Source: a virus. From it: DNA of 64,000 nt. Shown here piece by piece: positions 35,270-36,952 of the stretch. The position numbers were made by a program, and so were the translations under genes. Each line of letters starts with the position of its first letter. Position 1 is the stretch's first letter. The stretch is taken from IMG/VR virus record IMGVR_UViG_3300020020_000001, positions 16,171 through 80,170 of that record, one strand, 5' to 3'. Below the pieces are notes generated by a model that saw only the letters and a program-made list of their open reading frames with translations, had not been told where the DNA came from and did no database searches.

Positions 35270-36919
35270 TTAGATCCGTCCTGCACTAAAGTTTGCAATG
35301 AGTGACGGTAGGTTGGCGTCGCCACCACACACGTCAAGCATACCACGATCCGACGGGTCGGCAATGGTGAAATCTGTGGCGGTAAGTCCAACAACAACCA
35401 ACTTGGCGTCAATGCCTGTCTTCTGTCGATATGTACGAAGTGCCTGGAATGGGTGTGGACGACCTGCGTACGTTTCGCTGTCTGTAATGACAACGAACGT
35501 GTCTACCGCAATGTTGTTTCGTTCAGCAAACAACATTGGTAGTGAGCAGTCTGTTGACATGAATGGCCGAGAGACGCGCTTCATCACATCGTTCAGATCC
35601 ATACTTGCAGTTAGACCTAGATCGACAAACTGGCTACCAAACCCATAAACCTGGTAGTACGGCTCAGTGCGCATGATAGTCATGGCCATAGCTGCACCAA
35701 CCTGCGCGCAGTTAAGGTCAATACCCATCGCTGGTGAACCCATTGAACCGGACACATCAAGGGCGAGCATTGTGCGCTTGTTCGCTGGTTCTACATACTT
35801 GAATGCCTTGTAGAAACCTTCGTTCAGCGCCGCAACAATTACTGGATTGGTGTTCCAGTCCTTGACTCGCTGAGTTGTGTAACTATAACCGGGTGGAGGT
35901 ATGTCGCCAGGCTTCTTTGAACGCCAAATCTGACCGTTCTCGTGAACTGTCAGTGCAAGAAGGTACTGGATCGGGTGTAGCTTGGTACGTGCAATCATGC
36001 TTTCAGTTGTGAGTGCTGTTGCTACCTCACGAGTGAATACCATGTCATTGAACGCACCAATACGAGCTAGCCGCGTGATGTTACGGACAAGCGCCTGACC
36101 CTTAAGCTGACCGTTATAGAACAGCTTCTTCCATACTTCAGCATTCTTAAGAAACTGCGTAGGTAGTGCTTCCCATGGTAGGAGTGGATGATCATTCAGA
36201 ACATTTAGTACCGTCTGCACATTTTCCGCACCGGAAACACGATCGAATCCAATAAGAATATCCGACCGCTCTTCAACAGATGCCATGTTAGGTAGAGGCT
36301 TGCCAAGGATAAAGCTACCGACACTCTTGTCAATACCCACAGGGTGTGACAAGCGGAACATGTCACGGTGGGTCCAACCATCACGCTGACGATACTTCAC
36401 AGCCTGGTATGCAACCTGGTCTGGTGTCTTACGCTCATACCAGCTTGCCACCGCAGCACGCTTTGATCGACCCCAACCACCAAGTAGCTCGATGTACTGA
36501 GTAAACTGGAACAGGTGTGTCGAAATGCGAACTACCTTGGCAAAGGCGTCCTTGTTCTTACGCTTGCCGTAAGTGAACAGCGCAGCCATCACGAAGATAG
36601 CAGTGTTGTTACGGTAGGCGCGTCCACTTTCCGAAATCTCTGTTACTACCTGCTCGACTAATTCCTCATCGCGTCCGATCATCTCAATGACGAAGTTGAT
36701 GTTCTCCTTGGTGAGCGGCTTCTCCTGTACGTAGTAGGTACCCTTGTCAGTACCAAGAATCAGGAAACGCTCTAGCCGTGTGCGATCTGAGACCTGGAAG
36801 ACAAATCCACCAGCGTTGTTGACAACCTGGTCTGGACGTGCCTGCACTGTCTGTGGGGTATCCTGAATTTCCATCAGTGCTTCGGTGATGGCGTCACGGT
36901 TCTTATCTGGCTTAGACAT
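35270..36919 (-). CDS. rsr: Ro60 / TROVE-domain RNA-binding protein with C-terminal vWA domain
   Basis: 'QV.NNAGG..F', 'L.RFL.LG...GTYY', 'GWGR..R.AV..WY', 'YQ.VKYRQR.GWTHRD..RL.H', 'DVSGSM', 'TD.ET', 'IADP.D.GMLD..G.D'. Start refined to ATG 36919. Confidence 0.97.
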   Translation of the reverse strand: MSKPDKNRDAITEALMEIQDTPQTVQARPDQVVNNAGGFVFQVSDRTRLERFLILGTDKGTYYVQEKPLTKENINFVIEMIGRDEELVEQVVTEISESGRAYRNNTAIFVMAALFTYGKRKNKDAFAKVVRISTHLFQFTQYIELLGGWGRSKRAAVASWYERKTPDQVAYQAVKYRQRDGWTHRDMFRLSHPVGIDKSVGSFILGKPLPNMASVEERSDILIGFDRVSGAENVQTVLNVLNDHPLLPWEALPTQFLKNAEVWKKLFYNGQLKGQALVRNITRLARIGAFNDMVFTREVATALTTESMIARTKLHPIQYLLALTVHENGQIWRSKKPGDIPPPGYSYTTQRVKDWNTNPVIVAALNEGFYKAFKYVEPANKRTMLALDVSGSMGSPAMGIDLNCAQVGAAMAMTIMRTEPYYQVYGFGSQFVDLGLTASMDLNDVMKRVSRPFMSTDCSLPMLFAERNNIAVDTFVVITDSETYAGRPHPFQALRTYRQKTGIDAKLVVVGLTATDFTIADPSDRGMLDVCGGDANLPSLIANFSAGRI

Positions 36920-36952
36920 TTCGACCCCTTTCAAAGGGATATGTTACTGTCA
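36913..36952 (-). promoter_or_regulatory. Permuted Ro-binding helix over the rsr SD/AUG (candidate autogenous operator)
   Basis: GACA-GUAACAUAU-CCCUU-UGA-AAGGG-GUCGAA-AUGUC reproduces both strands of the Y RNA stem motif. Confidence 0.65.

Follow-up and report, generated by a model that had tools for sequence, protein, structure and literature searches.

A strand-swapped Y-RNA-like hairpin on the ribosome-binding site of a phage rsr gene: a candidate operator for feedback control of Ro60

The rsr gene and the hairpin on its start codon

The virus record IMGVR_UViG_3300020020_000001 of IMG/VR is a single contig of 80,170 bp with 46.8% G+C. We analysed its positions 16,171 to 80,170, a stretch of 64,000 nucleotides that is referred to as the window and whose numbering is used throughout. 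On the minus strand of the window, within a same-strand cluster of 23 tRNA genes and seven Y RNAs, lies rsr, which encodes a Ro60/Rsr protein. The ribosome-binding site (RBS) of rsr is part of a 23-nt hairpin that copies the Rsr-recognition module found in the Y RNAs of this phage.

The rsr product is a full-length Ro60/Rsr protein that matches the Pfam families TROVE (PF05731, 2.6e-35) and vWA_Ro60 (PF25045, 1.8e-60). It also matches the PDB entries 2NVO (D. radiodurans Rsr), 1YVP (Xenopus Ro60), and 9NEN at ~1e-91, and the matches to 2NVO and 1YVP cover residues 20-548. Relatives of this Rsr are encoded in 354 phage records; the nearest catalogued phages are Streptomyces phages, with merely 50-57% Rsr identity. 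The AUG at 36919 is the right start codon because it is preceded by a Shine-Dalgarno (SD) sequence, because it gives an MSK N-terminus like the MSN/MSK of the relatives, and because the same start-calling rule reproduces the annotated start of the rsr coding sequence in phage Gilson. Since the minus-strand interval from tRNA-Ser to rsr contains neither a sigma-70-like promoter nor a terminator, rsr probably belongs to a long transcript that comprises tRNAs, Y RNAs, and mRNA.

In mRNA sense, positions 36951 to 36915 read GACA GUAAC AU AUCCCUU UGA AAGGGGU C GAA AUG UC, and the minimum free energy (MFE) fold includes a 7-bp hairpin, which on its own has a dG of -6.6 kcal/mol. A first-pass annotation made from the sequence alone had described this hairpin exactly, including the 3-nt loop and the swapped order of the strands, and had correctly placed the SD AAGGGG (36930-36925) within the stem. 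It had also proposed an upper stem, GACA/UGUC, that uses the AUG. This stem is present but stands at chance level and is not conserved: stems of 4 bp or longer arise in 58% of shuffled flanks, and the flanks of 58 related leaders show no excess (mean longest stem 3.38 vs 3.39 in the null). Across the whole 80-kb genome, AUAUCC lies 3-40 nt before GGGUCG at just two sites, namely the rsr start (9 nt between) and a junction of tandem Y genes (40 nt between). The Rfam models Y_RNA (RF00019) and YrlA (RF02553) gave no match on 36900-36960 even at E<=10, and no family of Rfam 15 matches the hairpin site. A free Y RNA would comprise 80-130 nt with paired 5' and 3' ends and a large internal loop or a tRNA-like domain; the hairpin comprises 23 nt, is part of an mRNA, and has its strands swapped.

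Other readings of the site were rejected. An intrinsic terminator was dismissed, as the stem is followed by CGAAAUGUCUAAG and no U tract, and no terminator-like site was found on the minus strand from 36800 to 38300; a promoter was dismissed by the minus-strand promoter/terminator scan.

The first-pass annotation had spoken of a leader, but in this phage the region is coding: a conserved, previously unannotated open reading frame (ORF) of 78 aa between tRNA-Ser and rsr reads through the hairpin. The encoded protein is Cys-rich (C-x10-C-x2-C), followed by a hydrophobic stretch, and matched nothing in Pfam and PHROGs. The last codons (…TYPFERGRNV*) are the hairpin itself, and the UAA at 36914-36912 overlaps the rsr start (AUGUCUAA), so that the ORF ends 3 nt past the rsr AUG. 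The homologue found by tblastn in L083, the nearest relative, shows 35% identity (E 1.6e-14) and likewise runs through its own hairpin (…IYPFRRGR…). Ribosomes finishing this ORF would melt the hairpin, and rsr may therefore be translationally coupled to it, so that any model must include such coupling. Since tblastn found homologues only in L083/L003 and L084/L004 and most of the relatives that bear the hairpin lack the ORF, the RNA element is independent of it.

The Y RNAs of the window and their likeness to the hairpin

The Y-like RNAs of the window were located by a pattern search together with sub-threshold Rfam matches. All seven lie on the minus strand and share one design, GGGUCG(A/G)...GUUAUC...(C/U)AUAUCC. 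The 5' strand of the terminal stem ends in GGGU and is followed by a bulged C and G(A/G)A, the upper stem with GUUAUC, and a variable body; the 3' end consists of (C/U)AU and then AUCC with the partner strand of the terminal stem. The Y-RNA strands quoted in the first-pass annotation are thus real and are carried by every one of the seven. The rsr leader contains GGGUCGAA and CAUAUCC as in the seven Y-RNA stems, in reversed order, and a loop joins the two arms of its helix on the side that in a Y RNA bears the 5' and 3' termini.

The module was further compared between 218 distinct Y-like RNAs and 55 rsr leaders from the loci of relatives, with GRGY not imposed by the search. The two profiles coincide: an arm with G (87/96%), G or A, G (84/96%), and Y is followed by C, G, A/G, and A, and the partner arm is preceded by A-U. 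The 5'-strand arms of the Y RNAs were mostly GGGU (81), GAGU (30), GAGC (30), and GGGC (25), followed by C-G-(A/G)-A, with (A/C)(C/U)AU before the partner arm. The leader arms were GGGC (31), GGGU (9), GAGU (6), GGGA (4), and GAGC (3), with the same C-G-(A/G)-A and A-U. The geometry, a bulged-C helix in which a U of the opposite strand faces the G after the bulge, is present in the window hairpin and is the same in its seven Y RNAs and in the 218.

This module is the one that has been linked to recognition by Rsr. The recognition motif of bacterial Y RNAs is GNCGAAN0-1G, which is related to the GGUCCGA contacted by Xenopus Ro60, and Ro60 mainly contacts that strand (Chen et al. 2014, PMC4201824). 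A 'CGAA motif' was used to find two Y-like RNAs that are bound in vitro by the Ro60 of Thermus phage phiLo (PMC12135203). After the arm, 25 of the 55 leaders read CGAAA, mostly CGAAAGG, which fits GNCGAAN0-1G in full, and 11 read CGGAA; the window reads GUCGAA and then AU rather than N0-1G. In phage Gilson the leader is of the GGGC type but the Y RNAs are of the GGGU type. Leader and Y types can thus differ within a single phage, and simple recent copying does not account for the hairpin. In the window, the leader arms (CUU/AAG) match none of the seven Y stems. The element is a true copy of the Y-RNA module with its strands swapped, and it is conserved.

The features are compiled in Table 1. 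The Y genes at 42314-42916 form a tandem array of four, and the other three lie at 40349-40459, 38064-38161, and 37536-37656. All seven fall under the Rfam gathering scores, the best being the YrlA match (40 bits vs 69). ARAGORN reported a 'tRNA-Arg gcg' at 37564-37633 that is not called by the Rfam tRNA model. The enclosing Y-RNA stem, GUCGGGU-C-GAA ... AU-AUCCGAC, identifies it as the tRNA-like domain of a Y RNA of the YrlA type rather than a tRNA gene. Right after the Y RNA at 38064-38161, the minus strand at 38048-38063 reads CCCUUUGAUAGAAGGG, a stem that pairs an anti-SD with an SD; it belongs to the next gene (120 aa, ATG 38040) and lacks the bulged-C/GAA context. As for the tRNA genes, one at 29190-29264 (minus) was detected by the Rfam model (46 bits) and not reported by ARAGORN, and the tRNA-His of ARAGORN at 39399-39472 was missed by the Rfam tRNA model.

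Table 1. Coordinates of the rsr locus and of the Y RNAs in the window
Feature	Position	Strand	Description or basis
rsr / Ro60	35270..36919	minus	549 aa, TROVE + vWA; Pfam, PDB matches
Conserved small upstream ORF	36912..37148	minus	78 aa from ATG; translation, tblastn homologue
rsr start codon AUG	36917..36919	minus	directly 3' of CGAA
Strand-swapped Y-RNA module, candidate Rsr operator	36920..36942	minus	sequence, MFE fold, match of covariance model R2
Module: AU	36942-36941	minus	
Module: 5' arm	36940-36934	minus	AUCCCUU
Module: loop	36933-36931	minus	UGA
Module: 3' arm	36930-36924	minus	AAGGGGU
Module: bulged C	36923	minus	
Module: GAA	36922-36920	minus	
rsr Shine-Dalgarno	36925..36930	minus	AAGGGG, in hairpin 3' arm, 5 nt before AUG; from sequence
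Y RNA with tRNA-like domain	37536..37656	minus	stem GUCGGGU-C-GAA / AU-AUCCGAC
Y RNA	38064..38161	minus	stem UUGGUUGGGU-C-GAA / AU-AUCCAACCAA; Rfam Y_RNA 20.1 bits (below gathering score); fold z-score -4.1
Y RNA	40349..40459	minus	stem UGAUGUGGGU-C-GGA / AU-AUCCACAUCA
Y RNA	42314..42410	minus	12-bp terminal stem
YrlA-type Y RNA	42440..42580	minus	Rfam YrlA 40 bits, E 1.5e-07, gathering score 69
Short Y RNA	42669..42742	minus	stem ACACGGGU-C-GGA / AU-AUCCGUGU
Y RNA, first of tandem four	42778..42916	minus	pattern GGGUCG...AUAUCC at 42782-42912

Conservation and placement of the hairpin at rsr starts

We collected 160 loci with Rsr relatives from metagenomes and IMG/VR, which yielded 144 distinct rsr starts. 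The nearest relative studied has 62% identity, and the closest relatives (72-65%) lie outside this sample. The 60 nt before rsr were scanned for AU, a helix of at least 4 bp with a loop of 3-14 nt, and then CG(A/G). This structure was detected in 50 of the 144 loci, whereas 3.2 were expected from the rest of the same loci. A strict form (at least 5 bp, loop of at most 8 nt, CGAA or CGGA) was found in 35 leaders against 0.19 expected. Elsewhere it occurred 72 times in 3.36 Mb, mostly in tRNA T-arms, tandem Y junctions, and scattered coding sequence; given these off-rsr matches, we rejected the idea that RBSs in these phages generally carry a CCCUU/AAGGG stem. When some relaxed cases are counted as well, the module is present in 49 of the 63 distinct leaders of the clade with Rsr identities of at least 49%, and in 10 of the 81 below 49%. 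The first-pass annotation had named conservation of the motif at rsr starts in other phages and bacteria as a check. The former was borne out by these 49 leaders. The latter was borne out in part: among the 80 best-matching rsr loci examined in a collection of bacterial and archaeal genomes, one contig with 54% identity, labelled cyanobacterial, has a clear module, several myxobacteria have one (the scan picked up L201, L207, and L232, and visual inspection added L229, L185, and L215), and otherwise none was clear. The chromosomal rsr genes of Byssovorax, Polyangium, and other myxobacteria (L207, L232, L201, L229) carry a hairpin of the GCCCGG...CCGGGC-C-GGAGG type at the RBS, and the element is therefore not confined to phages.

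Covariation was evaluated in a MAFFT alignment of 37 leaders, from which the window was excluded, with 500 shuffles as the control; MAFFT alignments of all leaders were structurally inconsistent and were dropped. Paired cells amounted to 97.8% vs 80.5% in the shuffles, changes on both sides to 33 cells vs 8.2, and the covariation score to 0.607 vs 0.261, and none of the 500 shuffles reached the observed values. When the partner columns were slid, pairing fell to 64% or less. The pair adjoining the bulge is GC in 28 leaders, AU in 6, and UA in 3, and all four Watson-Crick orientations occur at the fifth pair. A covariance model, R2, was built from the same alignment and thus trained without the window; it replaced a model of GGGC-type leaders only (R1), whose narrow scope made it miss the window. 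Run against 768 kb on both strands, R2 found the rsr start of the window (36914-36944, minus) with 19.8 bits and E=0.042. This was its only match in the window below E=1, the next being a tandem Y junction at 42389-42450 with 13.1 bits. In a second set of loci, the top 25 matches of R2 were all at rsr starts.

These results bear on whether the hairpin is an ordinary small RBS stem that contains Y-like words by chance. The motifs are short, AUAUCC followed by GGGUCG within 30 nt is expected, by a rough estimate, about 0.25 times in an 80-kb genome, and the GACA/UGUC upper stem is itself at chance level. However, the same architecture recurs at the same place in 49 of 63 close relatives with compensatory changes, and the independent model R2 recovers the window site. 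Given the enrichment in leaders, the covariation, and this recovery, chance resemblance is effectively refuted, and we give it almost no credence.

A stem that masks the SD independently of Rsr, serving coupling to the upstream ORF or a damping of expression, could be Y-like by descent, for instance from a collapsed tandem Y junction. Such junctions give the same strand order, and the second match of R2 in the window is one of them; the upstream ORF runs through the hairpin and ends 3 nt past the rsr AUG, and a comparable CCCUU...AAGGG stem covers the SD of the gene that follows one of the Y RNAs. However, a generic mask would need neither AU and GRGY nor the bulged C and GRA, which are kept while the remaining helix covaries. 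Strict matches are ~180-fold enriched at rsr starts, and none was seen before other genes of the same loci. Most module-bearing relatives lack the upstream ORF, as mentioned above, and the mismatch of the leader arms with all seven Y stems indicates that the hairpin does not stem from a recent junction. Hence we regard a mask without Rsr as improbable.

The module is also placed narrowly with respect to the start codon. In all 59 module-bearing leaders, 4-24 nt separate the bulged C from the rsr start, and the spacing of 4 nt in the window is the tightest, common to L031. The SD is within the 3' arm in 12 leaders including that of the window, the tail CGAAAGGA is itself the SD in 40, and the SD follows closely in 7. 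In locus L038 (Ga0193742_1001896, 6910-8744), rsr is split at the conserved KYRQRDGW block into ORFs of 184 and 362 aa with a spacer of ~160 nt, and the hairpin with CGAAAGG is present just before the ATG of each half (R2 26.9 and 27.9 bits). This indicates that the element is tied to the translation starts of rsr and not to a position in the transcript. The window hairpin thus lies on the mRNA of the protein concerned, with the SD in its 3' arm and the AUG adjoining CGAA, resembles the primary RNA ligand of that protein, and is conserved at orthologues with compensatory changes, as is expected of an autogenous operator.

The placement also bears on what Rsr would do if it binds the hairpin. 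Outcomes other than translational repression would be protection of the mRNA 5' region, marking of a processing site in the long tRNA/Y-RNA/mRNA transcript, recruitment of polynucleotide phosphorylase (PNPase) for decay in a RYPER-like manner, or loading of new Rsr in cis. All the evidence for mimicry fits such outcomes equally well. Processing of a long precursor is likely, as rsr lies inside the tRNA/Y-RNA cluster without a promoter or terminator, and complexes of Rsr, Y RNA, and PNPase are documented, including for a phage Ro60 (PMC12135203). However, a signal for processing or stability would need neither the spacing of 4-24 nt nor an SD that is always in or touching the module, and in the split rsr a copy is present at each start codon. 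An outcome of this kind therefore seems rather unlikely to us, although it deserves a little more weight than the mask without Rsr.

A possible feedback circuit and its relation to known systems

What we observe is that the hairpin mimics the Y-RNA module, sits on the RBS, is conserved, and covaries. From this we infer that Rsr binds the hairpin and represses translation and that Y RNAs titrate Rsr, which would work as follows. The module, i.e. AU, a helix with the 3' arm GRGY, a bulged C, and G(A/G)A, would be bound by Rsr that is free of Y RNA. Because the SD is in the arm mainly contacted by Ro60 and the AUG directly follows CGAA, bound Rsr would exclude the 30S subunit and reduce rsr translation. 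Excess Y RNAs would take up Rsr, so that rsr translation resumes, and the circuit would keep Rsr in step with the seven Y RNAs. As ribosomes that end the upstream ORF would open the hairpin, repression may act on a translationally coupled start. That free Rsr binds the hairpin, covers the SD and the AUG, and blocks initiation while Y RNAs compete, so that Rsr follows the supply of unoccupied Y RNAs, appears to us fairly probable. We also lean, with slightly less confidence, towards the general proposition that a strand-swapped Y-RNA mimic on the rsr RBS puts Ro60/Rsr synthesis under feedback control, with Y RNAs as anti-repressors.

Several points weigh against a repressive operator. At -6.6 kcal/mol, the short hairpin has only moderate stability, and the whole 86-nt leader folds no better than its shuffles (z -0.83). 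The window motif GUCGAAAU lacks the final G of GNCGAAN0-1G, and translation of the upstream ORF through the hairpin could displace a bound protein. The sequences in the covariation alignment had been selected for forming the helix, and the counts are not independent events, given the relatedness of many of the phages. Furthermore, 14 of the 63 close relatives lack the module. In L008, L014 (7808-7945), L102, and L111, the place of the hairpin is taken by a complete Y RNA whose 3' end is 15-20 nt from the rsr ATG, an alternative layout that could also place Rsr beside the RBS. Bxz1-type mycobacteriophages showed no convincing hairpin at the RBS, and Bxz1 has three Y RNAs upstream.

Full-text literature searches turned up no paper that describes autoregulation of Ro60/Rsr or a leader element of rsr, in agreement with the first-pass annotation, which knew of no translational autoregulation of Ro60. 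If the feedback model holds, the Ro60-Y RNA system would gain its first autoregulatory circuit, one that would be widespread among tRNA-rich phages and would also occur in some bacteria, and Ro60 would join the few RNA-binding proteins known to control their own synthesis through ligand mimicry. How cells and phages match Ro60 to Y RNAs would find a simple and testable answer in a conserved operator. The minimal determinant for Rsr binding would then be a bulged helix of ~20 nt, whatever its strand connectivity. Such a determinant could help to find Y RNAs that are missed by current models, as all seven here are below the Rfam thresholds, and the hairpin would offer a compact tool for studying phage Ro60 proteins in vitro.

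The closest known counterpart of the hairpin is the Ro60/Rsr-binding stem of Y RNAs, including those of vertebrates, the YrlA, YrlB, and Yrn1 RNAs of bacteria and phages, and Yrl1/2 of phiLo. Both have a bulged C followed by GAA, the GNCGAA motif (which Y RNAs carry on their 5' strand), an opposite U/AU that faces the G after the bulge, and the GRGY arm of the 218 neighbouring Y RNAs. Unlike Y RNAs, the rsr hairpin lacks an internal loop, a GUUAUC upper stem, and a tRNA-like domain, and it is not a free RNA of 80-130 nt. Its strands are swapped, a 3-nt loop replaces the termini, it sits in an mRNA on the RBS, and its binding by Ro60 is predicted.

Autogenous operators that mimic the RNA ligand of a protein are found in the leaders of ribosomal-protein mRNAs (L1, S8, L20) and in E. 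coli thrS, which mimics the anticodon arm of tRNA-Thr. As in these systems, a copy of the binding site is located on the protein's own mRNA at the RBS, and the abundant noncoding RNA ligand is expected to compete, so that synthesis tracks the free ligand. The rsr case differs in that the pair is Ro60 and Y RNA, the mimic is circularly permuted and lies within the 3' end of an upstream ORF, and binding and repression are put forward here as predictions. Phages also use translational operators, such as the coat-protein hairpin at the replicase start of MS2 and Qbeta and those of T4 RegA and gp32. Like these, the rsr element is a small bulged hairpin that contains the SD or AUG and at which a phage protein is predicted to shut off initiation, and, as in MS2, the regulated start may also be coupled to translation of the upstream gene. 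Unlike in rsr, the regulated gene of MS2 is not that of the binding protein, and its hairpin mimics no separate noncoding RNA partner. An operator that mimics a ligand follows classical logic; its proposed use by Ro60 and its swapped-strand form are new.

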